Source of the DNA: a virus
Virus record (IMG/VR): IMGVR_UViG_3300043411_002995
Coordinates: 32,001 to 96,000 of that record
Length of the DNA: 64,000 nucleotides
Strand: one strand, 5' to 3'
A program made the translations under genes and the position numbers. The notes under the pieces are model-generated. The model searched no databases. It saw only the letters and a list, made by a program, of their open reading frames with translations, and was not told the DNA's origin. Positions 6,413 to 62,302 of the stretch are shown piece after piece. How positions within the stretch are numbered: the stretch's first letter is position 1; each line of letters begins with the position of its first letter.

Positions 6413-6431
6413 GGCACAAGCCTTCTGGAAC
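6413..6431 (+). promoter_or_regulatory. Candidate phage-RNAP promoter motif, copy 1
   Basis: GGCACAAG-N7-GAAC, intergenic, upstream of the ATPase/nuclease genes. Confidence 0.6.
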
Positions 6432-6506
6432 CCACCAACGCTCTGCACAATGCCGAGCCTTGGTCCGTGACCGCCGAGCTGAGCTCGGCAACGGAAAGGA
6501 TGACAC

Positions 6507-7685
6507 GTGGCTAAGACCGAGACCGAGACCGAGAACAACGAGAACGCCCCCCTCGACCTTGGGGGCCTGTCCTTCGCCGACGATGTGCACGTCGCCGGCG
6601 ACGCCCAGATCAGCTGGGTGAAGGCGCTGGGCTACGGCGTGTCCGGCAGCGGCAAGAGCAGCGTCATCGCGACGATGCCCGAGCCCCTGCTGGTCCTGCT
6701 GACCGAGAAGCAGGGGGAGATGTCGATCCGTCGGGTGAACCCGCGGGCGCACATCGTCTACATCGAGGAGACGGCGGTGTGCCGGTGTCACCAGCGCAAG
6801 CCGTCGAAGTGCCCGGACGGGGCACGGAAGGGCACGGAGCGGATCTCGGCGAAGGATGTCCTCTACGGGATCATCGACGAGCTCGCGACGAAGGACCACC
6901 CCTTCGTGTCGGTCGGCCTCGACTCGCTGACCGACCTGCAGAAGATCTTGCTGTCGCACATGAAGGGAGGCAAGGCGGCCGCGAAGATCTCCGTGGGTGA
7001 GTGGGGAACGCTGATCGACGAGACCCGCGACATCATCATCCGGCTGCGCAACCTCAACATGCACGTCGGGGTGGTCTGCCTCTCCGACGAGAAGCAGGAC
7101 CAGAACAACAGGGTGATGCAGCGGCCGTCGCTCGCCGGGAAGAAGCTGCCGGGCGACGTCGTGCAGTACTTCAACGTCTGCTTCTTCCAGCGCAAGGTCC
7201 GCGACGCGAACGCGATCGGCGGTGCGACCTACGAGTCGGTGTTCGACGCCGGCGACGAGTACTTCACCAAGGCCCACCCGGCGCTGGCGCCGGTCGAGCC
7301 CCCGCTCTTCCGGCTCTGGGTCGACAAGATCGCGGCGCACGCGAAGGCGAACGCCGAGGGCGACATGCCGTCGGCAAGCTCGCCCGTGTCGCCGGCCGTC
7401 CAGCCCAAGAAGAAGGAGAACTCGCTCAAGGCCCGCATCGAGCAGCCGAAGATCAAGGCGCTCTTCGACGAGCTCGAGTCCCCCGAGGCCAAGCGACTCG
7501 CCGGTGCGGAGAAGTACCGGTCCGACGAGAAGCTCATCGAGGTCCTCGAGAAGCGGGTCGCCGAGCAGCGGGCCAAGATCGAAGAGGACCGCCGCAAGGC
7601 GGCGCGCGAGGCCGGCGGCGGTGATCTGCCGACCACGGTGACCGAGCCGCCCCAGGCGCAGGCGTCGGCGGAGGTGCCGGCGTGA
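6507..7685 (+). CDS. AAA_24 / Sak4-like phage recombination ATPase
   Basis: Walker A YGVSGSGKSS, Walker B VGLDSLTDLQ; adjacent to a PD-(D/E)XK nuclease. Confidence 0.75.
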   Translation: MAKTETETENNENAPLDLGGLSFADDVHVAGDAQISWVKALGYGVSGSGKSSVIATMPEPLLVLLTEKQGEMSIRRVNPRAHIVYIEETAVCRCHQRKPSKCPDGARKGTERISAKDVLYGIIDELATKDHPFVSVGLDSLTDLQKILLSHMKGGKAAAKISVGEWGTLIDETRDIIIRLRNLNMHVGVVCLSDEKQDQNNRVMQRPSLAGKKLPGDVVQYFNVCFFQRKVRDANAIGGATYESVFDAGDEYFTKAHPALAPVEPPLFRLWVDKIAAHAKANAEGDMPSASSPVSPAVQPKKKENSLKARIEQPKIKALFDELESPEAKRLAGAEKYRSDEKLIEVLEKRVAEQRAKIEEDRRKAAREAGGGDLPTTVTEPPQAQASAEVPA

Positions 7686-8845
7686 GGCGGCTGGTGATCA
7701 ACGGCCAGGAGCTGAAGATCCAGAACTCGCCGACGTTCCTCGCGAACTCGGCCTGCCCGCTCAACCTCAAGCTCCACTACGTGGACAAGATCGACGAGCG
7801 GTACGTCCGGGTGGCGGCTGAGCGCGGCAAGACCGCGCACGGGGCGATCGCCGACCTGACCAAGCACTGCCTCGACGAGAAGATGCTGGTGCAGGACCTC
7901 GAGGACGGGATGCTGACGGACGCGCTGCAGCGGCACATCTCGCCCCGGATCCTGAGCGAGACGACGGCGATCTACAGCTGGCTGCGGCTGTGGCGCGAAC
8001 GCTTCAAGCTCCCGAAGAACATCCACGGCATCGAGGAGCGGGTCGCGCTCGACGACGACTTCGACGAGTGCGACTGGAAGGAGGCGAGCTACCGCGGGAT
8101 CATCGACCTGCAGCAGGTCACCGACACCCACGCGGTCATCACGGACTGGAAGAGCCAGTTCCACATCCTCTCCCAGGCCGAGCTCGACGCGCACGAGCAG
8201 GGGACGATGTACTGCTGGCTGATGTGGAAGCAGTACCCGCACCTGCGGACCTTCACCTTCCGCATCTGGTACCTGCGGTACGGCTTCTACCACGAGACGA
8301 CGCGCACCGAGGAGGACCTCGAGGTCTTCGAGAAGACCCTGATGATCCGGGAGAAGGCGCTCGCGGCGCTCGACAACTGGGACCCGGTGCCGGGGCCCCA
8401 CTGCCAGTACTGCGACTTCATCCACCTCTGCCCGATCGCCCAGGACCTCAGCCCGGGGAACCCGGAGATCATCACCCAGGAGCAGGCGACGCTGGCGGCG
8501 CAGCGCCTGGTGGTGCTCGACGTCGTGACCAAGGGTCTCAAGGAGGGTCTCAAGAACTACGTCGACAAGAACGACAGCATCCGGCTCGGCGACAAGTTCC
8601 AGTACGGCTACCGCCACAGCTCGAGCCTGAAGTGGAAGGCGGCCGATGTGGAGCAGGCCCTGCGCGACTACGACCGCGATCTGTCCGAGGTCGCCAACGT
8701 GGACGTCAAGGCGATGAAGAAGCTGATCAAGACGCTCACGCGCGAGGAGCCCGCGCTGGCTGAGCGCCTCGAGGACCTGGCCGAGACCAAGCACCGCACC
8801 GAGTTCCGGGGGTACAAGCCTGGCGCCGAGGACGACGAGGAGTAG
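7682..8845 (+). CDS. PD-(D/E)XK (RecB/Cas4-like) exonuclease
   Basis: GKTAHGAI, RGIIDL, ITDWKS, QGTMY, C-terminal CQYCDFIHLC cluster. Confidence 0.85.
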   Translation: MRRLVINGQELKIQNSPTFLANSACPLNLKLHYVDKIDERYVRVAAERGKTAHGAIADLTKHCLDEKMLVQDLEDGMLTDALQRHISPRILSETTAIYSWLRLWRERFKLPKNIHGIEERVALDDDFDECDWKEASYRGIIDLQQVTDTHAVITDWKSQFHILSQAELDAHEQGTMYCWLMWKQYPHLRTFTFRIWYLRYGFYHETTRTEEDLEVFEKTLMIREKALAALDNWDPVPGPHCQYCDFIHLCPIAQDLSPGNPEIITQEQATLAAQRLVVLDVVTKGLKEGLKNYVDKNDSIRLGDKFQYGYRHSSSLKWKAADVEQALRDYDRDLSEVANVDVKAMKKLIKTLTREEPALAERLEDLAETKHRTEFRGYKPGAEDDEE

Positions 8846-8857
8846 TAGACTCGGGGC

Positions 8858-9313
8858 ATGTCCACCCGCAGAGAGCAGCTGTTCAGCGCCAAGAAGCCGC
8901 CGCCGGGGTCCGCCATGATCCCGGCGACGGTGCGGTTCCGCCACAACAAGAAGAAGGGGCTGATCGAGCCCCTGGGAGCCCAGGAGAAGATGCTCTGCGC
9001 CCTGCGCAAGGTCTTCGCCGACATGAGCAACAAGGACGAGCGCTGGTGCATCGTCGGCAACCAGGTGCAGATCCTCGGCGCACCGACGACCACCGAAGGC
9101 AAGCCCAAGGGGCCGCAGAGCTACCGCGCGAGCGGGCGCTGCAAGGTGGCGATCATGCGGAGCGACGGGATGACGTCCAAGCTGATCGAGTTCTCGATCA
9201 GCTACAAGGACGTCGTGGACGACCGCGGCCTGGCCGACGTCATCTACTTCGATCCGACGACGGTCGATGAGGTCCCGCGGAACTCGCCCATCGATCGCTC
9301 GATGTTCGCGTAG
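8858..9313 (+). CDS. Hypothetical protein
   Basis: Clean ORF between the nuclease gene and a terminator. Confidence 0.7.
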   Translation: MSTRREQLFSAKKPPPGSAMIPATVRFRHNKKKGLIEPLGAQEKMLCALRKVFADMSNKDERWCIVGNQVQILGAPTTTEGKPKGPQSYRASGRCKVAIMRSDGMTSKLIEFSISYKDVVDDRGLADVIYFDPTTVDEVPRNSPIDRSMFA

Positions 9314-9335
9314 CCGCGGCGCCGTCTGCGGTGGT

Positions 9336-9371
9336 GGAGAGCCCCTGGTCTCGGGGGCTCTCCTTTTTTTT
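9336..9371 (+). terminator. Intrinsic terminator
   Basis: GGAGAGCCCC / GGGGCTCTCC 10-bp stem followed by T8. Confidence 0.9.
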
Positions 9372-9372
9372 G

Positions 9373-9391
9373 GGCACAAGGGATGAAGAAG
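9373..9391 (+). promoter_or_regulatory. Candidate phage-RNAP promoter motif, copy 2
   Basis: GGCACAAG-N7-GAAG directly after the terminator, merging into the AGGAGG RBS of the clamp gene. Confidence 0.6.
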
Positions 9392-9400
9392 GAGGTGTCC

Positions 9401-10831
9401 ATGGCCCAATCCACTGCGCTCGCGACCATCCCGATCCCCAAGCCGGCCGACCCGGCGGCTGTTGAGATGCCGCGCCCCCAGGCCTGGCTGTCCGTGGAGG
9501 CAACGATCCCGCACCGCGCCGTCGAGGTCGTCACCCCCGAAGAGCTGCGGCACGAAGAGCAGGTCCGCAGCAAGGTCGAGTTGCCCGACGAGTTCTTCAA
9601 GCGCGCGCCGATCATCGAGCCGCCGCTGGCACCGGGCATCACCGTGGACCTCGAGACCCTGCTCGGGTTCCTCGCGGCGATCGAGACGATCCTGCCGCCC
9701 GACACGAGCTACCCCATCCTGTCGAGCGCCAAGGTGTGGACCTCCGCCGGGCCCGACGACGAGCCCGAGCTCTACCTCGAGGCCGGCAGCCACGCGGTGT
9801 GGACGATGGTGGCGATCAGCGCCACCGCGCCGGCGCCGCGCGGGTTCAGCGCCATGATGCCGGTGCGGCGGGCGAAGAACGTCCTGCGCGCGCTGCGCGA
9901 CGACTACCCCAAGGTGACGGTCGGGGTGGACGAGCACGGCGTCTGCCTGGGGCCCAGGTCCGTGCCCTTCGGCGGCGCCCAGGAGGACTTCCCGTCGCGC
10001 CCCGTGGTGAACGAGTGGACCGCGCGCGCAGCCATGCCCGCCGCGTACTTCCGAGAGATCTGCGACCGGGTGCTGCTGGCCCGGGTCGACGACTTCTGCG
10101 AGCCGGCGCTGCAGGGCGTGCTGCTGGACTTCGAGCTCGTGGCCTCGGACGGCAAGGAGCGGGTGCTCTGCACCGCGGTCGCCACCGACGGCAAGCGCAT
10201 CCACGTGATGCGGCTGCCGCAGATGATGATCGAGATGCGGACCACCCGGCTCCGCGCCGTGCCCCCGACCTGCACCGTCTCGGCCGGGTTCTTCTGGTAC
10301 ATGCGGGAGGTGATCCAGCACGAGTGGGCCGCCATCGAGTTCAGCGAGGACCAGCTCGCCGCGCGCGGCCAGGACTTCATGGTGATCGCGCGCGCGCCGG
10401 CGGATGCCAGGACGTCGATGGGCGAGCTCGGCAACTGGCGGCGCTTCAACATCGAGGGTGAGGGGTACTGGCTGGTGGCGAGAGCGCCGCTCGAGCAGCT
10501 GGTCGCCCGCGCCACGATCGGGGGGACCTCGAGCCTCTGCCGGATCGCCATCGATGGCGTGCGGCAGACCCTGACCATCTCGTCGACCAACGACCAGGAG
10601 GCCCAGTACAGCGAGACGATCTCTGCACGCAGCGTGGGGGGCGCACCGAAGGTGAACGCCCTCTTCGACCAACGCTTCCTGCGCGACGCCATCACGGCGT
10701 CGTCCGGCGGGCTTGTGCGCTTGACGTTCGCGTCGACGCTCAAGGCCCAGCAGTCCTACCCGGTGGTGATCCGGGGCGAGGACGAGCAGTTCAAGGCCAT
10801 CATCATGCCCGTGACCGAAGGAGAGCCATGA
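9401..10831 (+). CDS. dnaN: DNA polymerase III beta sliding clamp-like protein (divergent, N-terminally extended)
   Basis: YPILS, EDFP, PALQGVLLDF, AVATDGKRI, FDQRFLRDAI, IIMPV; AGGAGG RBS before ATG 9401. Confidence 0.78.
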   Translation: MAQSTALATIPIPKPADPAAVEMPRPQAWLSVEATIPHRAVEVVTPEELRHEEQVRSKVELPDEFFKRAPIIEPPLAPGITVDLETLLGFLAAIETILPPDTSYPILSSAKVWTSAGPDDEPELYLEAGSHAVWTMVAISATAPAPRGFSAMMPVRRAKNVLRALRDDYPKVTVGVDEHGVCLGPRSVPFGGAQEDFPSRPVVNEWTARAAMPAAYFREICDRVLLARVDDFCEPALQGVLLDFELVASDGKERVLCTAVATDGKRIHVMRLPQMMIEMRTTRLRAVPPTCTVSAGFFWYMREVIQHEWAAIEFSEDQLAARGQDFMVIARAPADARTSMGELGNWRRFNIEGEGYWLVARAPLEQLVARATIGGTSSLCRIAIDGVRQTLTISSTNDQEAQYSETISARSVGGAPKVNALFDQRFLRDAITASSGGLVRLTFASTLKAQQSYPVVIRGEDEQFKAIIMPVTEGEP

Positions 10832-11313
10832 CCACCGATGCCACGTGTCCCGTCTGCGACAGCCCGACGAACCGGGTCGACGTCCCCCGCCAACACCTGC
10901 GGGTCTGCAGCCTGACCAGCTGCGCCCAGATCATCCAGGTCCTGCCCGATGGGTCGCGCTCGCCCATCTCGAACATGCTCGAGATGAACGCGATCGGCGA
11001 CGACCGGGTCCGCTCGGCGATCACCACCCCCCACATCACGACCGTCCGCAGCTTCCTCGAGGTGTACGAGCAGGCCGAGCGCGCCCGGGCCCTGGCCGTG
11101 GCCCAGGCGGTCGGCGGGCTGCGCGTCGTGCTGGCCCAGCTCGAGAGCCGGATCGACTCGGCGCTCTCCGCCTTCACCGGCTACGACCTGGTCGATGACC
11201 GCGCCGGCGCCGGCCTGGCTGCGCTGCGCGAGGCCCGCGAGTTCGTGTCGGTCCTGTCGAGCCGGTCGCGGGGGCTGCCGCAGGACGAGGGCGGCGGTGC
11301 TGCGTCGGCTTGA
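10828..11313 (+). CDS. Zn-finger hypothetical protein
   Basis: AAGGAG RBS, ATGA overlap; CPVC...CSLTSC. Confidence 0.7.
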   Translation: MTTDATCPVCDSPTNRVDVPRQHLRVCSLTSCAQIIQVLPDGSRSPISNMLEMNAIGDDRVRSAITTPHITTVRSFLEVYEQAERARALAVAQAVGGLRVVLAQLESRIDSALSAFTGYDLVDDRAGAGLAALREAREFVSVLSSRSRGLPQDEGGGAASA

Positions 11314-11947
11314 TCTGGGCCACCCGAGCGACTGCCGGCACTGCGGGCGGATGCGCGCGCTCACCCGCCAGCGTCTGGCGCTGGACAACCCGCGGACGGC
11401 CGCCGTGCAGACGTGGTGCCGGAAGTGCGGGGCGCCCGTGCTCTTGGAGGTGACGCTCGACTACGAGTTCGCCAAGCGGAACTTCTACGCGCTCGACGAT
11501 CAGCCCATGGCCCACAAGCACCTCCATGGGGAGCCGGGCGGATGGGGGGTGCACTGGCGGCTCGACGAGGTGCTGGTGACGCTGTTCCCGCTCGAGCACC
11601 TCGAGGTGTGCTGGCCGAAGCCGATCTGGTACGAGGACCACGAAGCCGAAGACCAGGCCGTCAACGTGGTCGACCCGCGCGACCTCGAGTCGATGGCGCG
11701 GCTCGTCGACGTTGAACTCAAGATGCTGCGGGAGCTGATGGATCGTCATCCGCGGACGCGCGAGGAGCTGCTGGCGATCGCGCAGCCGGTCTACGACCAA
11801 GATCAGCTCCGCGAGCGCTTCGAGATCCTCGGCTTCCGCGCGCCCTTCGTGGTGGTGCGCGAGCGCGGCAGCGGCCGCCAGGGCTCGATGATCTTCCAGA
11901 ACCACCCGCGCTTCTACTTCTCCTTCCAGACGGATCGGGTGATATGA
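11297..11947 (+). CDS. Hypothetical protein with two CxxC motifs
   Basis: GTG 11297; CRHC, CRKC; aromatic C-terminal domain FEILGFRAPFVVV...PRFYF. Confidence 0.65.
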   Translation: MLRRLDLGHPSDCRHCGRMRALTRQRLALDNPRTAAVQTWCRKCGAPVLLEVTLDYEFAKRNFYALDDQPMAHKHLHGEPGGWGVHWRLDEVLVTLFPLEHLEVCWPKPIWYEDHEAEDQAVNVVDPRDLESMARLVDVELKMLRELMDRHPRTREELLAIAQPVYDQDQLRERFEILGFRAPFVVVRERGSGRQGSMIFQNHPRFYFSFQTDRVI

Positions 11948-12141
11948 CCAAGTGCGTGCTGTGCCCCGAGGAGATCCGTCCCGGGACCAAGGCCGTGTCC
12001 ATCGCAGGAGGCATGTTCCCCAGAGAAGAACCCGATCTGTTCATGATCGACGAAGAGGTGTTGCGCGAGTCGCATGCCCACCTCGATTGCCTGCTGCGTG
12101 TGGTGAAGGCCGCCCAGCAACGAGAAAGAGACACCGGATGA
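11944..12141 (+). CDS. Small Cys/His protein
   Basis: ATGA overlaps at both ends; CVLC...HLDC. Confidence 0.6.
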   Translation: MTKCVLCPEEIRPGTKAVSIAGGMFPREEPDLFMIDEEVLRESHAHLDCLLRVVKAAQQRERDTG

Positions 12142-15240: not shown

Positions 15241-15249
15241 TATCAGGCG

Positions 15250-15603: not shown

Positions 15604-15608
15604 CGGCG

Positions 15609-15637: not shown

Positions 15638-15640
15638 GTC

Positions 15641-15669
15641 TTGACGGAAAGATGCGTGATCGGTACGGT
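15641..15669 (+). promoter_or_regulatory. Sigma70-type promoter (probably leaderless transcript)
   Basis: TTGACG-N17-TACGGT, ATG 5 nt downstream. Confidence 0.7.
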
Positions 15670-23737: not shown

Positions 23738-23767
23738 ACGGTAAGCCCGCGCAGGCGCCCTGGTCAA
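23738..23767 (-). promoter_or_regulatory. Sigma70-type promoter (leaderless)
   Basis: TTGACC-N18-TACCGT, ATG 7 nt downstream. Confidence 0.65.
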
Positions 23768-36299: not shown

Positions 36300-36328
36300 A
36301 GGGTATAGGCTACGCCAGGTCGGGTCAA
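36300..36328 (-). promoter_or_regulatory. Sigma70-type promoter for the head-protein operon
   Basis: TTGACC-N17-TACCCT. Confidence 0.65.
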
Positions 36329-37056: not shown

Positions 37057-37076
37057 GGCATAAGAAAGGACAGAAG
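37057..37076 (+). promoter_or_regulatory. Candidate phage-RNAP promoter motif, copy 3
   Basis: GGCATAAG-N8-GAAG then RBS. Confidence 0.65.
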
Positions 37077-37086: not shown

Positions 37087-37422
37087 ATGTCCATCGATCC
37101 CAAGTCGCAGTCCACCGTTTCCCCCATCACCCCGCCGACGAAGGTCGACGAGTCCCCCACCCGCGAGCAGCAGGCGTTGGACCTCCACAGCAAGCTGCTG
37201 TCCGCCAACCCCGGCTGCGATCTGGAGGTGACGCTCGGTGCCAAGTACGGCCCCGACGCGATCAACCTCGAGACGCGCAACCGGGGTGCGGACAAGTTCG
37301 CTGCGGGGGTCCTCGCCGGCATCGCGTTCGCGGGACTCGCCGGCCTCATCGGCGTGGCGGTGGCGAAGGCCGTGACGCCGCGCCCCCAGGTCAAGAGCCT
37401 CGGGGACGACGACACCAAGTAG
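37087..37422 (+). CDS. Small membrane protein
   Basis: AAGGAG RBS; transmembrane FAAGVLAGIAFAGLAGLIGVAVA. Confidence 0.7.
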   Translation: MSIDPKSQSTVSPITPPTKVDESPTREQQALDLHSKLLSANPGCDLEVTLGAKYGPDAINLETRNRGADKFAAGVLAGIAFAGLAGLIGVAVAKAVTPRPQVKSLGDDDTK

Positions 37423-37433: not shown

Positions 37434-37498
37434 ACCACTCGTGAGAGTGTTTTCCGCCGCGCAAGCGGCGAAACACCCTCGCGGGTGGTTTCTTACCC
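37434..37498 (+). terminator. Long hairpin with GCAA tetraloop plus TTTCTTACCC tail
   Basis: About 24-bp imperfect stem (2 G-U pairs, 1 mismatch, 2-nt bulge). Confidence 0.65.
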
Positions 37499-37518: not shown

Positions 37519-37536
37519 GGCATAAGAAGAGGGAAC
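37519..37536 (+). promoter_or_regulatory. Candidate phage-RNAP promoter motif, copy 4
   Basis: GGCATAAG-N6-GAAC. Confidence 0.65.
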
Positions 37537-37556: not shown

Positions 37557-37979
37557 ATGCGCAACAAGCTCGTGGCGACGCTCGACATCGTGTTGAGCGC
37601 CCGCCTCATCCATGCAGAGATTGAACGCACCGTGGAGCAGGCCCACAAGGTCTGCGACCCCCACCTGGCGATCTCGTTCGCCAACGCCCGGCAGACCGTG
37701 TCGAACCCCGTCGACATGGCCGTCGAGCTCGAGATGCTCGACGCCGCCATCGACCTCTCGAAGGAGAACCTGGCAGAGATCGAGGGCCTGAAGCGCTCGA
37801 TCGCCAAGTCGCTCCAGGGCCACGAGGTCCTGGAAGCGCTCGGCAGCGCGCTCGTGTCGCAAGACATGATCGACGCCGTCGAGGAGAAGTTCCAGGTCAC
37901 CGGGCTCAGGCTCGAGGAGATGGAGAAGCTGCGGGACCTCACCGTGTCCCGCGCCCGCGACCTCACCAGCCAGCTCTAG
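37557..37979 (+). CDS. Helical hypothetical protein
   Basis: AAAGGA RBS; coiled-coil character. Confidence 0.7.
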   Translation: MRNKLVATLDIVLSARLIHAEIERTVEQAHKVCDPHLAISFANARQTVSNPVDMAVELEMLDAAIDLSKENLAEIEGLKRSIAKSLQGHEVLEALGSALVSQDMIDAVEEKFQVTGLRLEEMEKLRDLTVSRARDLTSQL

Positions 37980-38036: not shown

Positions 38037-38534
38037 ATGACGCCGTTCCTCCAGGCCTTCACCGATGAGCTGGTCAAGCTCGGCGCGGACAACGACCTGG
38101 TCGACGTCTTCCGGGAGGCCAAGAAGGAGACCCGGAGGCAGCCGGCGCGGGACAGCGCCCTGAGCGCGCTGCGCGGGAACGGCACCCCGGTCAGCCGCAA
38201 CTACCTCGCGTCGATGTTGATCGGCGGGATCTCGGTGCCGGCGGTGGCGGTCATGAGCAAGCGGATCTCGCGGGCCCTGAACAACAAGACCGTGCAGCGT
38301 GAGCTCCGCGGCCTTGGGCCGATGGCGCACCCGAAGAAGGTCCGGGCGCTGCGCGACGAGTTGCACACCGGCCCGTCGTTCGGGCGCGCGCGCCCCGGCA
38401 CGCCGTTGAACACCCGGCCGCTCATCACGCACGGCGAGGCCGCCGGTCTTGCGGCGAGCGGCGTCGCGACCGGTGGCCTGGTGCAGATGATCCGGGACTA
38501 CTTCGCGGGCAGCGCGCCGACGACCCCGCGCTAG
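38037..38534 (+). CDS. FxDELxK-family protein (on the opposite strand to the rest)
   Basis: MTPFLQAFTDELVKLG; TACACT -10 element 7 nt upstream of ATG. Confidence 0.72.
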   Translation: MTPFLQAFTDELVKLGADNDLVDVFREAKKETRRQPARDSALSALRGNGTPVSRNYLASMLIGGISVPAVAVMSKRISRALNNKTVQRELRGLGPMAHPKKVRALRDELHTGPSFGRARPGTPLNTRPLITHGEAAGLAASGVATGGLVQMIRDYFAGSAPTTPR

Positions 38535-44825: not shown

Positions 44826-44862
44826 GAGGCCATCGTACAGCAAAGAGGACTCCTCCCCCCCT

Positions 44863-44880
44863 GGCATAAGGAACACGAAG
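44863..44880 (+). promoter_or_regulatory. Candidate phage-RNAP promoter motif, copy 5
   Basis: GGCATAAG-N6-GAAG upstream of ssb. Confidence 0.65.
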
Positions 44881-44914: not shown

Positions 44915-45370
44915 ATGTCTTCCGTGAACAAGATGATCCTGATCGGCCACCTCGGAGCCGATCCCGAACTCAAGCACATCCCATCGGGGCAGCCCGTCTG
45001 CACCTTCACGATCGCCACCAACGAGGTCTGGAAGGACAAGTCGGGTGAGAAGCAAGAGCGCGTCGAGTGGACCAACATCGTCGCGTGGGGTCCGCTCGCC
45101 GAGGTCTGCGCGAAGTACCTGGCCAAGGGCCGGCAGGTCTACGTCGAGGGCCGCAAGCAGACGCGGACCTACGACGACAAGGAGGGCGTGAAGCGCTACT
45201 TCACCGAGTGCGTCGCCCAGGAGGTGAAGTTCCTCGGCGACGGCAAGGGTGACGGGGACGGTCGCGGTGAGAGCCGCGGCCGCAGCGACAGCAAGCCGTC
45301 GGGCCGCCGCGATGACGGCCCTCCGCCCCGTGGCCCGGGCCCCGGCGCGGACGACGACATCCCGTTCTGA
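44915..45370 (+). CDS. ssb: Single-stranded DNA-binding protein
   Basis: [27 protein letters not shown]-terminal DDDIPF. Confidence 0.95.
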
Positions 45371-46427: not shown

Positions 46428-46476
46428 ACGGCGCACGGGGCGGTTGGCTCCCAACCCCTGCGCCGTTTTTTTAGCC
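46428..46476 (+). terminator. Intrinsic terminator (at convergent gene ends)
   Basis: ACGGCGCA...TGCGCCGT outer stem, GGTTGG/CCAACC inner stem, T-tract then AGCC. Confidence 0.8.
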
Positions 46477-47574
46477 TGAGGGCGTCGCGAGCCGCGAGCC
46501 GCGAGCCGGGTTGTAGAGCGACTCGACCATGTCCTTGTAGAAGGCGGTCTTGCTCGGCGGCTTCGCCTGGGCGCGCTCCTTCGCCGGCCCGCCGACCTGC
46601 CCAGGACCGATGCTCTTCGGCTTGGGCGGGCTGGTCCCCATGCGCCAGGCCGAGCTCGCGCTCGAGCGCAAGGCCCCCGGTGCCTTGACCTCGGCGCCGG
46701 CCGCCGCCGCCCCGAGCTTCTCCTCCTGCGCTTCGAGCTCGCCCGCCCGCCGCTTCGCCGCCGCCCCTTCCCTCAGCGCCTCGACCAGCCGCTTGGCCAG
46801 GATGGTCGCCAGGACCGGCGCCGCCGCCGCCGCGACGTAGGTGCCGAAGGACGGGGCGAGCTCCTTCAGTGCGCGCATGGTGCCGTAGCCGCTGTGGCGA
46901 GCCCCCTGCAACGCCTTGTAGGACGCCCGCGCCTCCTCGATGAGTTCGGGGGCGGTGGTGGCGGCCACCAGCGCGGGGGCGTGGTCGTAGACGAACCGCC
47001 GGACCCGCTCCCCCTCCTGGGGCTCCGAGATCGTGCTGGCCGCGAGCCCCGCCCGAACCAGGTGGCCGATGGTGGACCCCGTGCCGAGCGTCTTGCCCAT
47101 CGACTGGAGGGCCCGCCGCAGGTCGTGGCTGCCGGCGATCGGCGAGGCGTGGCCGATCTCGTGGAACGCCTGTGGGACCGACGACCGGTTGAGCCCGATG
47201 TGGGGGGTGACGTCGCCGACGGGCTCGCCGGCGATGCGCATGAGCAGGCTGCGGAGCGGGCCGGGGCGGTCCATGAAGTAGCCGGACTCGAACCCCGGCC
47301 CACCGGCGATGATGGGGACGGTGACGCCGCTCTTGCGGGCGAAGTCGGCGATTGCCTCCGCCTCGGCGCGCGTGAACTTCGAGAGCCGCTTCAGCGGCGT
47401 GCCGGTGTCGTCGTCGAGCGGCACGCCGGACATGAGCAGCTTCGCGAGCCCGTGCGGAGCGTCGCTCGTGAGCGGAGAGATCACGCGAGGAAGCCCTTCG
47501 TACGCGGCCGCGGCCGCGAGCGCTGGCGCGACGCCGAGCCCCCCACCGTCTTCCTGGTCCCGATCGTCGGACAT
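46471..47574 (-). CDS. Zincin-like protein, paralog of 32794..34281
   Basis: AFHEIGHA, downstream IEEARAS, shared DHAPALVAAT and LAPSFGTY blocks; start overlaps the RNAP stop. Confidence 0.65.
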   Translation of the reverse strand: MSDDRDQEDGGGLGVAPALAAAAAYEGLPRVISPLTSDAPHGLAKLLMSGVPLDDDTGTPLKRLSKFTRAEAEAIADFARKSGVTVPIIAGGPGFESGYFMDRPGPLRSLLMRIAGEPVGDVTPHIGLNRSSVPQAFHEIGHASPIAGSHDLRRALQSMGKTLGTGSTIGHLVRAGLAASTISEPQEGERVRRFVYDHAPALVAATTAPELIEEARASYKALQGARHSGYGTMRALKELAPSFGTYVAAAAAPVLATILAKRLVEALREGAAAKRRAGELEAQEEKLGAAAAGAEVKAPGALRSSASSAWRMGTSPPKPKSIGPGQVGGPAKERAQAKPPSKTAFYKDMVESLYNPARGSRLATPSG

Positions 47575-53867: not shown

Positions 53868-53879
53868 CTGGTGCCGTCG

Positions 53880-53897
53880 GGCATAAGCCTCGTGAAG
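53880..53897 (+). promoter_or_regulatory. Candidate phage-RNAP promoter motif, copy 6
   Basis: GGCATAAG-N6-GAAG, divergent from and 12 nt from the RNAP start. Confidence 0.65.
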
Positions 53898-54005
53898 GAG
53901 GGATGTTACGCGTGAGCCATCGTAGCAAGAACCCCCCGCGGCCGCTGCGCTCCGTCACCGTCGGAGCGTTCGATGCCGTCTTGACCTGCTGGCACGAGGA
54001 GATAC

Positions 54006-54230
54006 ATGTCCGCGCTGATCGTCCTGCTCAACCCGCGGCCGCGGGGCCGCTCTGCACCCAGTCGCCAGTCGCCCCCGACCCGGATCCGGGCACTGGCCGA
54101 CGCTAGCATCCAGTTCGGCCGCACCCTGATCGCAGGCTGGATGCTGCTGGCCTGGGTCCTCATCCTGACGAAAGAGGCGATGCGCGGCATCGCGTGGCTC
54201 ACCGGCGCCACCGCCGATCTGTCGGCATAA
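54006..54230 (+). CDS. Small membrane protein
   Basis: GAGGAG RBS; transmembrane LIAGWMLLAWVLIL. Confidence 0.55.
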   Translation: MSALIVLLNPRPRGRSAPSRQSPPTRIRALADASIQFGRTLIAGWMLLAWVLILTKEAMRGIAWLTGATADLSA

Positions 54231-54242
54231 GCCAGGGAGAAG
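54224..54242 (+). promoter_or_regulatory. Candidate phage-RNAP promoter motif, copy 7
   Basis: GGCATAAG-N7-GAAG; its TAA is the stop of the preceding ORF. Confidence 0.62.
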
Positions 54243-54248
54243 GAGACT

Positions 54249-54704
54249 ATGTCCTCGTACATCTGCCTGAGGCGCTACGGCCTCATCCGCAAGGCGGCGC
54301 CGGCACCCCAGCCCGTCCGCTTCTACAAGACCATGCAGAGCCTCGCGGCGATCACCGCGAGCGTCACGGTGCCAGCCCACGGCATGCTGGTCTCGGGCTT
54401 CTCCCACCAGTCCATCCCCATGCGATCCCAGATCTGGACCTTCTTCAAGCAGCTCCTCCGGGGGTGCGCTTGGGCCGCGGCGATCGCCGCGGGCATGTTG
54501 GTCTACACGGCGTTCGTCTCCAAGTGGAAGGAGAACGGCTTCCCCACCATCCCCATCAGCGCGCTCGTGGCGATCGATCAGGCCATGCCCAAGAACGGTC
54601 CGTCGAACGTCGTCACGCTCGGTGGCGGCAGTGCGCAGGTCCCATCTCCGCGACCCGCCAACACCCGGCAGACGAACCTCATCGACATCGAGTACGAGGG
54701 CTAG
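54249..54704 (+). CDS. Membrane-anchored hypothetical protein
   Basis: AAGGAG RBS; central hydrophobic helix. Confidence 0.65.
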   Translation: MSSYICLRRYGLIRKAAPAPQPVRFYKTMQSLAAITASVTVPAHGMLVSGFSHQSIPMRSQIWTFFKQLLRGCAWAAAIAAGMLVYTAFVSKWKENGFPTIPISALVAIDQAMPKNGPSNVVTLGGGSAQVPSPRPANTRQTNLIDIEYEG

Positions 54705-56139: not shown

Positions 56140-56437
56140 CGGAGTCTCCTCTGGTACGGGAAGGGGTCTTGGCCCAGTAGTGAACGAGGAGGATGATCTC
56201 CTCGGTCGTCGTGCTGATGTTGCTCCCGCCCTCCATCGTCTCGGTGATGGTCTTCTTGCGAGAGTACTCCTTGATCATGTCGACCTTGATCCCTTCGGAG
56301 AGGTCGTTCATCCGGTTGCGGAGCTCCGCGTAGGCCTCGCGATCCCCCTGCTCGAAGAGGTTGAACTCCTCGCAGTAGAACGTCCCGAGGTTGCGCCCGC
56401 CGACGCCGCCGAAGTTGACGGGGGTAGCCTTCGCCAT
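56093..56437 (-). CDS. Hypothetical protein
   Basis: TGATG overlap with the portal stop. Confidence 0.6.
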   Translation of the reverse strand: MAKATPVNFGGVGGRNLGTFYCEEFNLFEQGDREAYAELRNRMNDLSEGIKVDMIKEYSRKKTITETMEGGSNISTTTEEIILLVHYWAKTPSRTRGDSDEDDEEDRRRIAPAG

Positions 56438-58470
56438 CAGATCGGCCCTCCGTCACGCCGCGGAGGCGCCGCCTGGGGCAGTGGCTTCTGCTGGTCGGCG
56501 ACGTCGCCGGCGGTGGCGCCGGGCGCCATCTGGGACAGGAGCTGCTCGACCAGGCGGGCCATGTTGGGCATCTTCGCGCGCAGCTCGTTGAGGACCTGGA
56601 CGCGCTGGCCCTGGTCCATCTTGGAGATCTTGTTGGCCCACTGCTTGGCGACCCGGGCCGCATCGAGCTGCACGACCTGGCCGCCCTGGCCGCCCACGTC
56701 CGTCCCGCCGGCTTGAGTCCCCGCCTCGCCGGCGACGGCCGCCTGCTGCTGGGATGCCTGTTGCTGGGCCGCCTGCTGCGCCATCTGCTGGTCCTGGGCC
56801 ATCTGCTCGGGCCCTGCGGCAGGCGCCGGCGCGCCGCCCATGGCCGGGTCCTGGGCCTGCCCTGGAGGCAACGCGCCCTGAGGCCCGGCGTTGCCCTGCT
56901 GCTCGTTCTGGGCCTGCCCCTCCATGCCCGGCTGTCCGCCGGCGGACGCGCCCTGGGCCTCCGCGAAGGCTTCCTGGGCGCGGGCCTGGTAGCGGGCCTG
57001 GACGATCGACGACTCTCCCTGGGCCTCGGTCTGGGCCTTCATGGTGATCGCCTGGATGCGGTTCCGCTGCTCCGCCTCCTTCTCGATCATGTTGAGCTCG
57101 TCGTCGTAGTCGAACCCGAGCTCGGTGAGCATCGTGTGGTCCGAGATCTTGTTGGCAGCGTTCAGCTGGATGACGATCTGCTTGCGCTGGATGTCGTCCG
57201 CCATCTTGAACTCGGTGAACCCGATGACGACATCGGGCATCCCGAGGTAGAGGCGCACGCGGTTCTTCGCCCAGTTGACGAAGCGCAGCAGCAGCCGGCG
57301 GTACAAGAGGAAGTGGTTCTCGAGGGTGCGCAGCGAGACGGAGCTGCCCGACCACGAGAGGCCGCCGAAGACGAACTCGAGCGGCACGCCCATGCCGCCG
57401 GTGATCTCCTTGTTCGTCACCTCGATCTCGGGCCCAAGGAGTAGGGCCCGGCCGTCGCCGCCCAAGCGCTCGAACCCGAGCGGTACAGCGACGACCGAGA
57501 CGTAGTTCGGGTCGATGCGCCACTTGCGGATCTCCTCCTGCACCGTGCCCTGCCACGTGGACAGGTTGACGTGCTGGTAGGGGTCCTGCTGGGCGTTCGC
57601 CTGGGGGAAGATGAACTCGAGCGGGAGGATGCGCTGCAGCGCGATCGCCTCCTGCGCGCGGCGCAGGACGTAGAGGTAGAACATCCGCCCCATCGAGTGG
57701 ATGATCAGCGGCTTGCCCCACCCCATGTCCTGCTCGGCCAAGGTCGGGCGCTTGAAGTGGAAGAGGTTCTGGTCCGAGAGCGCGACGTCGCGGCTCAGCT
57801 TCAGCGCCAACAGGAAGACCGCGGGGATGTCGACCAAGATCTCGCGCGACCCTTCCTGGATCGCCTTGCGGATCTTGTTCGGGATCTTGTAGCGGTACTT
57901 CGACCGCCCCGTGATCGGGTTGTAGTGGATGTCGATGTTCTTCGGGTCCCACCGAACGAAGTTGATGCCGGTCCGGTCCTTGATCGGCCTGTCGACGATC
58001 TCCCCGACGACCTCGGCGCGGCAGGCCTGGCAACCGTAGTGGAACTGGAAGTTGCGGAACTTGTAGCTGAACGACTCGTCGGAGAGTCGAGCCATCGACT
58101 TGCAGGCTGGGCAGCGCAGCCACCGCACGAACGGCAGGTTCATCGAGATGAACGCGTTGCCGTAGCAGAAGTAGTCGAGGCCGATCTCGATCAGGAAGGG
58201 CTTGAGGTTGAGCTCGTCCTCGAGGAGGGTCTTCCACCCGTCACGGACGTGCTTCTCGTCGGCGTTGTAGACGAAGTCCGTGACCGGGTACTCGGCGATC
58301 TTGGTGACCACCGACCCGATCATCGGGTCCTTGTAGAAGAAGTACTGGCACCACCGGAAGAGCTCCTTCACGGTCGGCGGCATGTACGTCTGCGCGATGT
58401 CGAAGAACGGGGACGGGTACACCGTCCCCCGTCGCCGATCGAGTCGCCCTTGGAACATGCCGTCGGACAT
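56437..58470 (-). CDS. Portal protein with Q/A/G-rich C-terminal extension
   Basis: LDYFCYGNAF, FHFKR, GWGKPLI, GMGVPLEFVFG, LTELGFD pattern. Confidence 0.8.
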   Translation of the reverse strand: MSDGMFQGRLDRRRGTVYPSPFFDIAQTYMPPTVKELFRWCQYFFYKDPMIGSVVTKIAEYPVTDFVYNADEKHVRDGWKTLLEDELNLKPFLIEIGLDYFCYGNAFISMNLPFVRWLRCPACKSMARLSDESFSYKFRNFQFHYGCQACRAEVVGEIVDRPIKDRTGINFVRWDPKNIDIHYNPITGRSKYRYKIPNKIRKAIQEGSREILVDIPAVFLLALKLSRDVALSDQNLFHFKRPTLAEQDMGWGKPLIIHSMGRMFYLYVLRRAQEAIALQRILPLEFIFPQANAQQDPYQHVNLSTWQGTVQEEIRKWRIDPNYVSVVAVPLGFERLGGDGRALLLGPEIEVTNKEITGGMGVPLEFVFGGLSWSGSSVSLRTLENHFLLYRRLLLRFVNWAKNRVRLYLGMPDVVIGFTEFKMADDIQRKQIVIQLNAANKISDHTMLTELGFDYDDELNMIEKEAEQRNRIQAITMKAQTEAQGESSIVQARYQARAQEAFAEAQGASAGGQPGMEGQAQNEQQGNAGPQGALPPGQAQDPAMGGAPAPAAGPEQMAQDQQMAQQAAQQQASQQQAAVAGEAGTQAGGTDVGGQGGQVVQLDAARVAKQWANKISKMDQGQRVQVLNELRAKMPNMARLVEQLLSQMAPGATAGDVADQQKPLPQAAPPRRDGGPI

Positions 58471-58484
58471 GGTGGCCTACCGGC

Positions 58485-59813
58485 TCAGATGATGCCTTCG
58501 CCGCCGGTGACCGCGCCCTTGCCGGTGACCATGCGGTAGCCCGCGGCGCCGAGCGCGCCGGCACGGATGAGCGCGCCCTTCTCCTGCGGGCTCAGCGAGC
58601 CCCAGCCGTTGTTCGTCCACTTCTTGAACGAGTCCATCGCCTTGACCTCGCCCGGAGGATCCGCCGGCGGTTTGGGGCCGTCGGCGTCGACCTTGGCCTT
58701 CGGCGAGATGTCCGGCGCGGGACCGTCGGTCCCCGTCCCCTTGCCGCCCTGAACGACTGCCAGCTCGGGCTTGCCACGATCGGCCTTGGGCGAGGCCGCG
58801 TCGGCCGCATCGGCGGTCGCCTTGGCACGCTCGCCCTCGGCCTTGACGACCTTCGCCTCGCCGAGCTGCGCCGGGGGCGGCGTCGGGGCCTTGGTCGCGT
58901 TGGCGGGACTGCCCGCCGCGGCGTTGCCGCGCGCCACCGACGTGTTCGCCGGCGCGGCCGGGGCATCGTCCCAGCCAGCGTCGATCTTCTTCATCGTGGT
59001 GTCGCGCTTGTCGATCGCCCGCCGCGCCTTCTCCTGGGCCACCGCGACGTTCTTCTGCGCGGCCGGCAAGGCACCCTTCGCGGCCGCGCCGCGGAGGCCG
59101 GCCGCCTGGGTCGCGGCCTGGACCCGCGCGAGTTCGGCCCGCGCCTTGTCGGGCGCGTTGATCGTGCGCAGGTGGCGAGCCTCGCGAGCCTTGGTACCGA
59201 CGAAGGGGGCGTTCTTGGCGACGCTGCGGCCCGCGGCCGCCACGGGCTTCGCAGCCGCCCGCGCCGCACCTGCGACGGGCTTCGCAACCGCCCGCGCCGC
59301 GCCGCCACCGAGGTGGCGTGCCACGCCCTTGAGGGCGCCGAAGCCGCCGCGGATGGCGCCGATCAGCGCCTCCTTCTCCATCATGGCCATGGAGACGAGG
59401 TCGTGGCCCACCTTGGCCAGCTCGGCCTCGACCACCGGATGCAGGTCCGGGGGGACCTCGCTGCAGAGCGAGGCGAACATCGCCTCGAGGTCGCCCTGGA
59501 TCGCTGCCGCCGCGACCTTGTCGAACACCTCGCCGAACTCCTCCGGGCTCAGGTCGACCTGGTTGAGGATCTGGTCGATGTAGACGTCGGCGCGCTTCTG
59601 CATGCCGGCGTTGGCGCCGCGCATCCCGACCGATCGAAGGATCTCGATGTCACGGTCCAGTCGCCGCGCCACCTTCTCGAACGGGGTGGCCGCGGCTGCG
59701 GTCTTCGCCATCGGCGCCGGCGCGCGCGGCTTCACGCCGGCCTCGGCGTTCGCCAGCTTCTGGAAGAAGGCGTTGCTGGACTCGGCGGTGAGGTAGGAGA
59801 AGTGGTCGCGCAT
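58485..59813 (-). CDS. K-x-A-rich putative head protein
   Basis: MRDHFSYL; KLA, KTA, KVA, KRA, KVA, KVG, KEA, then basic Ala-rich C-half. Confidence 0.72.
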   Translation of the reverse strand: MRDHFSYLTAESSNAFFQKLANAEAGVKPRAPAPMAKTAAAATPFEKVARRLDRDIEILRSVGMRGANAGMQKRADVYIDQILNQVDLSPEEFGEVFDKVAAAAIQGDLEAMFASLCSEVPPDLHPVVEAELAKVGHDLVSMAMMEKEALIGAIRGGFGALKGVARHLGGGAARAVAKPVAGAARAAAKPVAAAGRSVAKNAPFVGTKAREARHLRTINAPDKARAELARVQAATQAAGLRGAAAKGALPAAQKNVAVAQEKARRAIDKRDTTMKKIDAGWDDAPAAPANTSVARGNAAAGSPANATKAPTPPPAQLGEAKVVKAEGERAKATADAADAASPKADRGKPELAVVQGGKGTGTDGPAPDISPKAKVDADGPKPPADPPGEVKAMDSFKKWTNNGWGSLSPQEKGALIRAGALGAAGYRMVTGKGAVTGGEGII

Positions 59814-59815
59814 GG

Positions 59816-60016
59816 TCAGCCTCCGGCGGCCCAGGCCGGGCCGCGGCCGCGGCCGCGCGCAGGGTCGAAGCCGTCTTCGACTACCTGGGCGAGTTCGCGT
59901 TCGAAGTCCTGGCGGGTCTTGTCCATGAACTCTCTGCGGAACTCGGAGATCGTGGCCGCCAGTTCTCTGGCTGCCTCGACTTCCGAGGGCGGGGTCGGGT
60001 CGTCAGACTGCATCAT
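59816..60016 (-). CDS. Small hypothetical protein
   Basis: ATGA overlap with upstream stop. Confidence 0.5.
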   Translation of the reverse strand: MMQSDDPTPPSEVEAARELAATISEFRREFMDKTRQDFERELAQVVEDGFDPARGRGRGPAWAAGG

Positions 60017-61053
60017 GGCACAGGAGGCGCAACCGTTGAAGCGCCGGCCGGGGCTCCGGGCACCGCCTGGCGTAGCACGCCGCGCTCGTCCAGGTACGCC
60101 TTGACCACCACGAGCTTCAGCAGGTGGATGTCCAGCGGGTGATCCGGTCGCCATTCGATCGTGGTTGGGTCGACGTCCTTGATCCGCTCCCACGCCGCGG
60201 CGACGTCCATGCGGAAGCCGACGGTCCACTTCTTCCGGTCGAGGAGCCCCTGCACCGGCCCGAAGAACTCCTCGGGAGCGTAGACCCAGCCGTGGTCCTC
60301 GAGGATCGCCCCGATGTACGCGATGACCTCGGCGTCGAACTCCTCATCGGCGCGGATCGCGCGGAGGATGGACACGGCGAACGCCGTCTGCGCAGGGCTC
60401 ATCGGCTGGAAGGCACCGATGATCGGGACGATGTCGTTCCAGGCCAGGCCGCTGTCCTCGAAGATGTCCCAGTCCAGCCACGGCATGTCGCTTGTCACGG
60501 CGACCCGCAGGGCCATGATCTTGTTGCGGGTCAGGTCTCCGACCGGGCCGAAGTCCTTGCGCAGTGCCCACCACAGCGTGGCGGGCTCCCAGTCGGCCCA
60601 GGCGGTGCGATAGCGCATCGTGAGGGTGTCGAGCAGCTGCAGCGGGTGGGCGCGCTTGTCGGTGAAGATCCGCCCGTGCGTCCGGCGGGATGGCAGCGCC
60701 GGCTCGGGCGCCGGCTCTTCGCCCTCCTCGAGCTCGGGCTCAGCGTCCGCGCGATCGAACCCGTCCACTTCCATGGCCGCCGATGGGGCGACGGCCTCGA
60801 GGCCATCGTCCTGGGCATCCTGGGCCTCCTGGACCTCCTGGGGCTCTTGGGCTGTGTCTGCCACCGCCGGCGCCGTGGTGGCCGCCGGCGCCTGCCGCTC
60901 GAGCTCCTTCAGGATCGATGGCGAAACGGTCGGCAGGTCCAGCGCCTCGGCCACGCCGGGGTCAAGGTCGACGGCGGTCTTCGCCAGTGGGCCGCGCCCC
61001 ATGACCGTGGCGAAGAAGCTCTGCTCCGCCGAGTTGGGGATGTGCCGGGTCAA
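60013..61053 (-). CDS. Hypothetical virion-module protein
   Basis: AKTA near the N-terminus, acidic linker, Trp-rich globular domain. Confidence 0.7.
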   Translation of the reverse strand: MTRHIPNSAEQSFFATVMGRGPLAKTAVDLDPGVAEALDLPTVSPSILKELERQAPAATTAPAVADTAQEPQEVQEAQDAQDDGLEAVAPSAAMEVDGFDRADAEPELEEGEEPAPEPALPSRRTHGRIFTDKRAHPLQLLDTLTMRYRTAWADWEPATLWWALRKDFGPVGDLTRNKIMALRVAVTSDMPWLDWDIFEDSGLAWNDIVPIIGAFQPMSPAQTAFAVSILRAIRADEEFDAEVIAYIGAILEDHGWVYAPEEFFGPVQGLLDRKKWTVGFRMDVAAAWERIKDVDPTTIEWRPDHPLDIHLLKLVVVKAYLDERGVLRQAVPGAPAGASTVAPPVP

Positions 61054-61054
61054 G

Positions 61055-62200
61055 CTACGCCTCGCCGGAGATGACCTGCTTGATCAGCGCCTTCTCGGGG
61101 GCCGGGAGCGACTCGTAGATCTCGACCGGGTTGGCCGCGAACTGGCTGGCGAAGCTCGACCCCATGTAGCCGGCGATCTTCTTCTGGACAGCCTCCTTGC
61201 GCAGGTCGGCCTCGGTGATCGTCATCCCGTCGACCTCGTCGGACCACCCCTCGGCGACCTTGCCCATGGTGCTGGCATAAGGGTCGCTGAGCCCCCGATC
61301 GTAGTACCGCGACAGCCCGGTCGCGGCGTCGATGGCCTGGAGGGCTGCTGCAGCGTCCTCCGGGCTGGTCTCCCCCAGGGAGGCCGCCAGCTTGTCGAGG
61401 ACCGACCGAGCGTCCTGGTTGCGAGGAAGGAGGGACTTGCGCTGCTCGATGTGGGCCAGCACGTGGCGGTTCCAGCCCGGCGACGCCCACTTCTCGAGGA
61501 GGTCGTGACCGGAGACGTCCACCTCGAGCTCGGCCGCGCGGGCCTGCACGTTGCGCGCGAACTGGTGACGGTGCGGAGGCGAGAGGTCCATGGCGTACTT
61601 GTCGAAATACTCGGCCGCCACCTTCACGTACTCGGCCGTCGGCATCGCGTACTTGCGCAGGATGGTCCCGTCCTCCGAGCGCACCACGAGCCCCCAGTGC
61701 TCGTTGGGCAGGTTGACGAAGGCCTCGATCTCCGCGGCCTGGGCCTGCTTCTCGATGAACTCGCGCTCGGCGAGCTTGCGCAGCATCCACCCAGTCTCCG
61801 ATCCCTCGACGAAGGTGTTGCTCGTCGCCTCGTCATCACCCACCCGCGCCGCGTACGCGGCCACCATCTTCGAGTTCGGCACCCCGTACGCGTCGCATGC
61901 GGTCTTGATGAACTTGGCGGCGATGAACCTCGCCGGCCAGGCCAGCTTCTCGTGCGTCGCCTGGAAGTACTGGGCGCTCAACCAGGCGTTGCCCGGGTCG
62001 TTCACCGGGTAGCGCCGCATCACCGCCGCGCGCTTGGTCAGGACGATCAAGCCGAAGTCGGTGTCCGGCAACGCGGCGTGCTGGTCCGCCGTCAAGACCG
62101 TGGTCTGCGCGCGCGCGATCGCGGCAGGCATGGCGATCTTGCTCATCAACTCGTGCTTGCTGTCGTCGTAGAAGTCGAGGACCGCGGCTGCGATGGTCAT
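61055..62200 (-). CDS. K-x-A-rich putative head protein with internal duplication
   Basis: Two copies of LP..(D/H)(F/W)GL.V....R(R/K)Y......(S/A)A.YF; KIA, KLA, KQA, KVA, KWA, KEA. Confidence 0.72.
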   Translation of the reverse strand: MTIAAAVLDFYDDSKHELMSKIAMPAAIARAQTTVLTADQHAALPDTDFGLIVLTKRAAVMRRYPVNDPGNAWLSAQYFQATHEKLAWPARFIAAKFIKTACDAYGVPNSKMVAAYAARVGDDEATSNTFVEGSETGWMLRKLAEREFIEKQAQAAEIEAFVNLPNEHWGLVVRSEDGTILRKYAMPTAEYVKVAAEYFDKYAMDLSPPHRHQFARNVQARAAELEVDVSGHDLLEKWASPGWNRHVLAHIEQRKSLLPRNQDARSVLDKLAASLGETSPEDAAAALQAIDAATGLSRYYDRGLSDPYASTMGKVAEGWSDEVDGMTITEADLRKEAVQKKIAGYMGSSFASQFAANPVEIYESLPAPEKALIKQVISGEA

Positions 62201-62228
62201 TCTGATCGCCTTTCCCTGCGCAGCAGGA

Positions 62229-62258
62229 ACGGTATCACGCGCCTCGAAGGGGGGTCAA
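62229..62258 (-). promoter_or_regulatory. Sigma70-type promoter for the portal operon
   Basis: TTGACC-N18-TACCGT with extended TG. Confidence 0.68.
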
Positions 62259-62284
62259 CGCAGGGGAACCACTCGACCTTTCCA

Positions 62285-62302
62285 GGCATAAGAACCTTGA
62301 AC
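62285..62302 (+). promoter_or_regulatory. Candidate phage-RNAP promoter motif, copy 8
   Basis: GGCATAAG-N6-GAAC. Confidence 0.65.

Follow-up and report, generated by a model that had tools for sequence, protein, structure and literature searches.

Organisation of the locus and distribution of the motif

The DNA analysed here (the window, 64,000 nucleotides) comprises bases 32001-96000 of one IMG/VR virus contig, IMGVR_UViG_3300043411_002995 (111,705 bp, 68% GC). On its minus strand the window encodes a tail-sheath-like protein, a major head protein, a protease-like protein, a large terminase and a 2097-amino-acid (aa) RNA polymerase (RNAP). The subject of this report is a short element that recurs on the plus strand, GGCAYAAG followed after 6-8 nucleotides (nt) by GAAS, which, judged from its sequence and surroundings, is very probably a promoter.

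A pattern search for GGCAYAAG-N6-8-GAAS returned eight matches in the window, all on the plus strand and exactly at the eight positions listed in the original prediction (Table 1). Dinucleotide-preserving shuffles of the window gave an expectation of 0.03 matches, in keeping with the earlier argument that chance was unlikely. The bare core GGCAYAAG occurs 13 times on the whole contig, always on the plus strand, and the hexamer CATAAG was found nine times, each time on the plus strand and within the motif. TAAG, which had been called rare in DNA this GC-rich, is present 10 times on the plus and 7 times on the minus strand of the window, and the motif accounts for seven of the plus strand copies. 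Non-coding DNA, taken from a crude gene call based on GC content by codon position, makes up 15% of the contig and holds 10 of the 13 cores (p ~1e-6), which bears out the placement of the copies at gene boundaries. Cores with one mismatch and a downstream GAA showed no sense-strand excess, indicating that the box is sharply defined. Besides the motif, k-mer enrichment in intergenic DNA returned homopolymer runs, CTAG words at the gene junctions inspected and several further words.

The copies are placed after terminators, in three divergent intergenic regions and ahead of plus strand units, an arrangement that favours the promoter function first proposed. Two of them (copies 2 and 4) closely follow terminator-like hairpins with a T-rich tail, and the downstream genes that had been named were found: those for Sak4-like, exonuclease, clamp-like and SSB proteins and for small proteins, four of which carry one hydrophobic segment each. 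Outside the window, a gene for a 1143-aa primase-helicase also lies downstream of a core copy. When sites from this contig and three related contigs were pooled (38 cores), a start codon with a Shine-Dalgarno (SD) sequence was found 10-130 nt past the core at most of them.

Table 1 Coordinates of the motif copies and of other features (window positions unless stated otherwise)
Feature	Position	Strand	Remarks
Motif copy 1, GGCACAAG ... GAAC	6413..6431	+	about 94 nt 5' of Sak4-like gene
Sak4-like gene	6507-7685		downstream of motif copy 1
Exonuclease gene	7682-8845		after Sak4-like gene, downstream of motif copy 1
Terminator-like hairpins and T8 run	9320..9371	+	minimum free energy -31 kcal/mol, then TTTTTTTT; directly before copy 2
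Motif copy 2	9373..9391	+	5' of clamp-like processivity-factor gene (probable ATG 9401, end 10831)
Sigma-70-like candidate TTGACG-N17-TACGGT	15641..15669	+	after T-run
Sigma-70-like candidate TTGACC-N18-TACCGT	23738..23767	-	within minus strand head and tail block
Sigma-70-like candidate TTGACC-N17-TACCCT	36300..36328	-	head of minus strand virion block
Motif copy 3	37057..37076	+	30 nt 5' of gene for 111-aa protein (37087-37422), one hydrophobic segment
Terminator-like hairpins and T-rich tail (5 T in 9 bases)	37455..37496	+	about 25 nt before copy 4
Motif copy 4	37519..37536	+	5' of 140-aa gene (37557-37979) and 165-aa gene (38037-38534)
Motif copy 5	44863..44880	+	divergent region, 52 nt 5' of ssb (44915-45370); orthologous copies in L001-L004
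Fused beta-beta' multisubunit-type RNA polymerase, 2097 aa	47574..53867	-	Pfam Rpb2_6 3.7e-44, Rpb1_2 2.4e-26, Rpb1_5 and others
Motif copy 6	53880..53897	+	13 nt from polymerase start codon, pointing away; precedes small open reading frame (GTG 53912-54106); orthologous copies in L001-L006
Motif copy 7	54224..54242	+	5' of gene for 151-aa protein (54249-54704), one hydrophobic segment
Core only, GGCATAAG	61274..61281	+	GAAS half missing; antisense within minus strand gene 61055-62200
Sigma-70-like candidate TTGACC-N18-TACCGT	62229..62258	-	divergent minus strand unit; TTGACC kept in L001, L002, L004
Motif copy 8	62285..62302	+	divergent region, 106 nt 5' of 113-aa gene (62391-62732), one hydrophobic segment; orthologous copies in L001, L002, L004
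Sigma-70-family gene, 282 aa	contig 110283-111131 (window-equivalent 78283-79131, beyond window end; L040:14283-15131)	-	codon-position GC pattern
AAGGAG-N8-CTG	L001 ~9890-9930	-	
AAGGAG-N8-CTG	L003 ~7490-7530	-	
AAGGAG-N8-CTG	L005 ~9890-9930	-	

Three local features were observed alongside the motif. The antisense core at 61274 is encoded as ...CCT TAT GCC AGC... (PYAS), with a rare Tyr codon (across the contig's long genes, 14 Tyr codons out of 697 are TAT); at the homologous codon, related contig G001 also has TAT GCC AGC, but G002 and G003 do not. This core may be an internal antisense promoter, or due to chance. At 44830-44845, the minus strand has a TAnnAT-like hexamer overlapping the presumed ATG of the gene that diverges from ssb. 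It is present in five of five genomes (the window and L001-L004), appears as CCATnnTAC on the plus strand and is invariant in the alignment; the hexamer may represent either N-terminal codons or the -10 box of a start that lies further on. Finally, AAGGAG-N8-CTG followed by an open frame, 3' of the polymerase-adjacent promoter, is common to L001, L003 and L005, which suggests a small basic protein starting at CTG in these three; this contig has GTG (53912) at that place.

Anatomy of the element

A consensus was derived from the 38 pooled cores, with the first G of the core as position 0. The full element reads CAC-N12-GGCAYAAG-N5-TGAA. Positions 0 to 7, GGCA(T/C)AAG, are invariant; upstream of them, C(-15)A(-14) was found at 19 of the 38 sites (background 5%), and a T-rich stretch spans -6 to -4. 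The second half consists of T13 G14 A15 A16, with TG at 18 of the 38 sites against a background of 6.5%. The GAA(G/C) half of the original prediction is thus real, but it is partly confounded with ribosome-binding sites, as the SD sequence GAAGGAG in several window copies begins with the GAAG half of the motif. In alignments of two orthologous intergenic regions, the only invariant bases outside coding sequence were CAC, GGCAYAAG and G(+14).

If CAYAAG is set at -12 to -7 and GG at -14/-13, the putative start falls on the G of TGAA, and the conserved T/G lands at -1/+1. A T/G at -1/+1 after a hexamer at -12 to -7 is the spacing of the bacterial-type open complex. This spacing is also found in PMC7598289. 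The A equivalent to -11 is invariant, and the last position of the hexamer is G at 38 of 38 sites here and at 30 of 30 in the cultured Salmonella phage Arash, described below. The match to sigma-70-type promoters is therefore partial, with G in place of the conserved -10 T(-7). The description of the motif as non-sigma70 stood in respect of this invariant G, but not of the layout, in which a -10 box of the sigma type is followed 7 nt downstream by the putative start.

Four other promoter types were considered and rejected. In T7-type promoters, conservation extends without a break over some 20 nt (-17 to +6), and the polymerase gene that goes with them encodes a single-subunit enzyme; here, only eight contiguous bases are invariant and the polymerase is of the two-barrel multisubunit type. 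No stable hairpin of the kind used by the N4 virion polymerase was found at the 13 sites of the contig, where 40-nt windows folded at -8.0 kcal/mol compared with -12.0 kcal/mol for random ones. The T4 late box, TATAAATA, is missing from both strands of the contig. The sigma-54 pattern (GG-N10-GC) was judged by eye not to fit in its spacing.

Conservation in related phages

A protein-guided scan of IMG/VR with the polymerase identified 37 loci; near-identical phage records were not found. In the six closest loci (polymerase 55-62% identical, 55-61% GC), every GGCAYAAG lies opposite the strand of the polymerase gene, and copies occupy orthologous positions by the polymerase start codon, 5' of ssb and at the equivalent of window position 62285. 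Three of the closest contigs were taken whole. Counts on the two strands were 13/0 for the present contig and 12/0, 0/7 and 6/0 for these three, so that all 38 cores lie on the strand opposite the polymerase gene. The reversed pattern, used as a control, gave no match. In distant relatives (polymerase 32-39% identical, 35-61% GC), the polymerase-adjacent site reads GGTATAAG, GTCATAAG, GTTATAAG, GCTATAAG or similar, often followed by N6-GAAG, and most relatives in this GC range have a YATAAG core adjoining the polymerase gene.

Two named phages extend this pattern. Arash (OQ632216) has a polymerase 34% identical to that of the present phage, and the commonest 8-mer of its genome is GGTATAAG, found 30 times on the minus strand and once on the plus strand (reversed-pattern control, 2 and 3). 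Where the annotation was checked, most of these sites lie 17-55 nt 5' of minus strand genes, two are farther from the next annotated start, and one is 13 nt 5' of a tRNA-Asn gene, a position that speaks against a role in translation. The sites share the consensus tGGTATAAG-N5-TGTA, preceded by TCCAWA at a distance of about 17 nt. In Vibrio phage D69 (OZ195729), TATAAG-N5-TG was counted 23 times on one strand and 4 times on the other; the consensus is G(T/C)TATAAG-N5-TGTA, and about one third of the sites have TCAACA or a close variant 16-17 nt upstream. A search of related phages with the same RNAP, suggested together with the original prediction, therefore found the core kept and strand-biased in close relatives, Arash and D69. 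Across all relatives it persists from 35% to 68% GC, and the hosts of phages spanning this range must differ.

These data bear on what kind of element the motif is. Arash TGGTATAAG resembles an extended -10 promoter, as might be expected of a promoter for the host holoenzyme, but at -7, where sigma-70 promoters have a highly conserved T, all 38 sites here and all 30 in Arash have G, the 68% GC phage has lost T(-12) as well, and the same box is kept across phages of unrelated hosts. Strand-exclusive motifs can be replication-related, and a polar replication or packaging signal, an RNA processing site or a translational operator might be considered; against such non-promoter roles are the copies after terminators, the copy before a tRNA gene, and a core-to-start-codon distance that varies from 10 to 130 nt. 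A host promoter or a non-promoter element is, taken together, a very improbable explanation.

The phage RNA polymerase and a candidate sigma factor

The 2097-aa polymerase is a single fused chain that contains the NADFDGD sequence and is close to cellular enzymes. A comparison of five genomes revealed no convincing conserved -35/-10 pair ahead of its gene. The chain has no cysteines; alignment columns 1693, 1757, 1764 and 1767 hold Cys in at least 90% of 14 aligned polymerase relatives. The gene directly 3' of the polymerase gene (46471-47574, minus strand, 367 aa) had no Pfam or PHROG match.

A search of the contig with Pfam Sigma70_r2 found nothing, and the sigma-70-family gene was identified only through Arash gp10, a protein that matches Pfam Sigma70_r3 above the cut-off. 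Tblastn with gp10 gave a match at contig positions 110628-110996 on the minus strand (36% identity, 1e-18) and another in related contig G002. The 282-aa protein encoded there has 113 metagenome homologs, several with Sigma70_r2 or r3, and a profile built from 46 homologs matched RpoS, SigA and RpoD chains at ~1e-13 over regions 2-4. Its AlphaFold model (pLDDT 82) matched the sigma chains of holoenzyme structures in Foldseek, and PHROGs placed it in family 351, sigma factor. The phage family does not have the two Trp residues that standard sigmas carry in region 2.3, the segment that aligns with RpoS 'STYATWWIR'; as far as sequence can tell, this absence is compatible with an altered -10 specificity. 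In a structure prediction for sigma together with polymerase residues 1080-1480, the control scored too close to the complex.

The neighbours of the sigma gene are large minus strand genes, mostly without a PHROG match, one of them with weak tail-protein matches, and Arash gp10 is likewise located among structural genes. Mass spectrometry of Arash virions gave the most spectra for the beta homolog gp206, and the beta' homolog gp216 and the 'sigma factor' gp10 were also detected (PMC10585845). The authors of that study noted that abundant enzymes may be carried along in particles (PMC10585845).

Promoter candidates on the virion strand

The minus strand virion genes and the polymerase gene are without the GGCAYAAG element. 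A search for TTGACN-N16-18-TANNNT found six sites on the contig, compared with 1.4 in shuffles, and five of the six are on the minus strand. Several stand directly ahead of minus strand units (window 23767, 36328 and 62258, contig 103098). By their sequence and position, these sites look like host-type promoters.

These sites also enter into a different division of labour. The fused polymerase would read GGCAYAAG by itself or with the help of some unrelated factor, as in AR9 or phiKZ, and no sigma would take part; the phage sigma would instead act at the TTGACN-N17-TANNNT sites ahead of the virion genes. The virion polymerases of jumbo phages do use a conserved AT-rich motif of ~10 nt near -10 with no sigma-family subunit (PMC7598289), and the excess of sigma-70-like sites ahead of minus strand units is as this explanation would have it. 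The box itself speaks otherwise: its geometry is of the sigma type, in that the hexamer spans -12 to -7, position -11 is A and a gap of 6 nt separates the hexamer from a putative purine start; in D69 and Arash, a -35-like box lies at 16-17 nt. In addition, cellular enzymes, to which the polymerase is close, need sigma. We regard a sigma-free reading of the box as distinctly improbable.

Proposed mode of recognition

GGCAYAAG is likely to define a class of promoters specific to the phage, in which it acts as the -10 box and is read by the phage sigma together with the phage's own beta-beta' polymerase. Under this model, the box would head plus strand non-structural units (primase-helicase, Sak4-like protein and exonuclease, clamp, SSB and small membrane proteins). 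It would most likely be recognised by the phage-encoded sigma-70-family protein, which would probably work with the fused polymerase. If sigma and polymerase are packaged in the virion, as is reported for their homologs in Arash, the GGCAYAAG promoters would be early. Recognition by the fused RNAP or by a phage factor, as originally suggested, can accordingly be narrowed to a concrete candidate on the same contig, and the phage sigma is the most economical reader of the box. The proposal that the motif defines an early regulon is plausible, its one basis being the Arash virion proteome (PMC10585845).

The core enzyme with which the sigma works requires separate consideration. Phage sigmas such as T4 gp55 and SPO1 gp28 redirect the host core polymerase, and such redirection is their textbook role. 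Jumbo phages without a polymerase of their own usually carry sigma homologs (PMC7598289), and the sigma found here has recognisable regions 2-4, like cellular sigmas. The box could on these grounds be read by the phage sigma on host core, with the beta-beta' enzyme using other signals. However, phages whose hosts are of very different GC content carry motif, sigma and polymerase as a set, the Arash sigma is present in virions alongside the polymerase subunits, and a second conserved phage-specific motif that might serve the phage polymerase was not found. Use of the host core is therefore considered unlikely, and the joint occurrence of box, sigma and polymerase in phages of very different hosts makes the phage core the most economical choice.

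Several points weigh against recognition by sigma and phage polymerase. The 20 public runs that contain the sequence are DNA metagenomes (activated sludge, wastewater, freshwater, groundwater and bioreactors), with no RNA among them, and the estimated completeness of the contig is about 71%. We infer the start site and even promoter function, as well as the reading protein, the core enzyme that partners the sigma (phage or host) and the timing. No clear box is apparent at the canonical -35 distance in the clade of this phage. As the sigma resembles RpoS and SigA, it could instead be the reader of the TTGACN/TANNNT sites. Several plus strand units have no copy of the motif, which indicates that it is not the sole promoter for non-structural genes.

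An extension of the model is that a complete initiation machine, consisting of a single-chain beta-beta' enzyme and a true sigma-70-family factor, is carried in the virion and injected for early GGYATAAG promoters, the late virion genes being left to the host enzyme. This is put forward tentatively, and we consider it somewhat less probable than not. If this proves true, the phage would provide the first case of a multisubunit polymerase that is injected and depends on a sigma, and its enzyme would amount to a natural minimal holoenzyme in which neither alpha nor omega is recognised.

In the literature searched, no description of the GGTATAAG/GYTATAAG sites was found. Multisubunit polymerases of the mReC phages have been discussed only as phylogenetic markers, in a text that contains neither 'promoter' nor 'sigma' (PMC7481178), and the word 'promoter' is absent from the Arash paper (PMC10585845). 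The present contig adds a GC-rich form of the box, with C at -12, sometimes C at -10, and CAC at 14 nt, and the coexistence of the box with host-type sites on the virion strand. A sharp, lineage-wide box and a candidate sigma provide a testable model for the separation of phage and host transcription, and a cultured Salmonella phage with 30 copies makes this model directly testable at the bench. The box may also serve as a simple annotation marker for the non-structural operons of the lineage and, together with the sigma, as a possible orthogonal expression pair.

Comparison with known systems

The closest counterparts are Arash and D69. All features of the Arash-like class were found here: a YATAAG-type core with T/G five bases on, confinement to one strand, opposite the polymerase gene, an association with non-structural genes, and homologous polymerase and sigma genes. 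The differences are that the box is GGCAYAAG here (GYTATAAG in D69), with C at -12 and sometimes at -10, that the start region is TGAA rather than TGTA, and that only CAC, 14 nt 5' of the hexamer, is conserved upstream in the clade of this phage, in place of the TCAACA or TCCAWA that D69 and Arash carry at 16-17 nt.

With sigma-70 promoters (TTGACA-N17-TATAAT, extended -10 TGn), the element has in common the hexamer position (-12 to -7), an A at -11 and at -9/-8, conserved bases just 5' of the hexamer, a 6-nt gap that ends in T (-1) before a putative purine start, and a cognate sigma-family protein, which the phage itself encodes. In contrast to these promoters, G always replaces T at -7, C often replaces T at -12, and there is no TTGACA; unlike standard sigmas, the phage protein has no Trp pair in region 2.3.

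The early promoters of the phiKZ and AR9 virion polymerases likewise combine a short conserved AT-rich motif near -10 with non-structural operons and a multisubunit polymerase (PMC7598289). Those enzymes are split, highly diverged and without a sigma-family subunit, and the AR9 nvRNAP reads the template strand of uracil-containing DNA (PMC7598289), whereas the polymerase of the present phage is fused and cellular-like and is accompanied by a true sigma homolog. T4 late promoters, with TATAAATA at -10 and gp55, gp33 and the clamp as their factors, share the lone -10-type box and a phage sigma-like factor. In the present phage, however, the box would drive replication and recombination genes rather than virion genes, and the sigma has regions 2-4.

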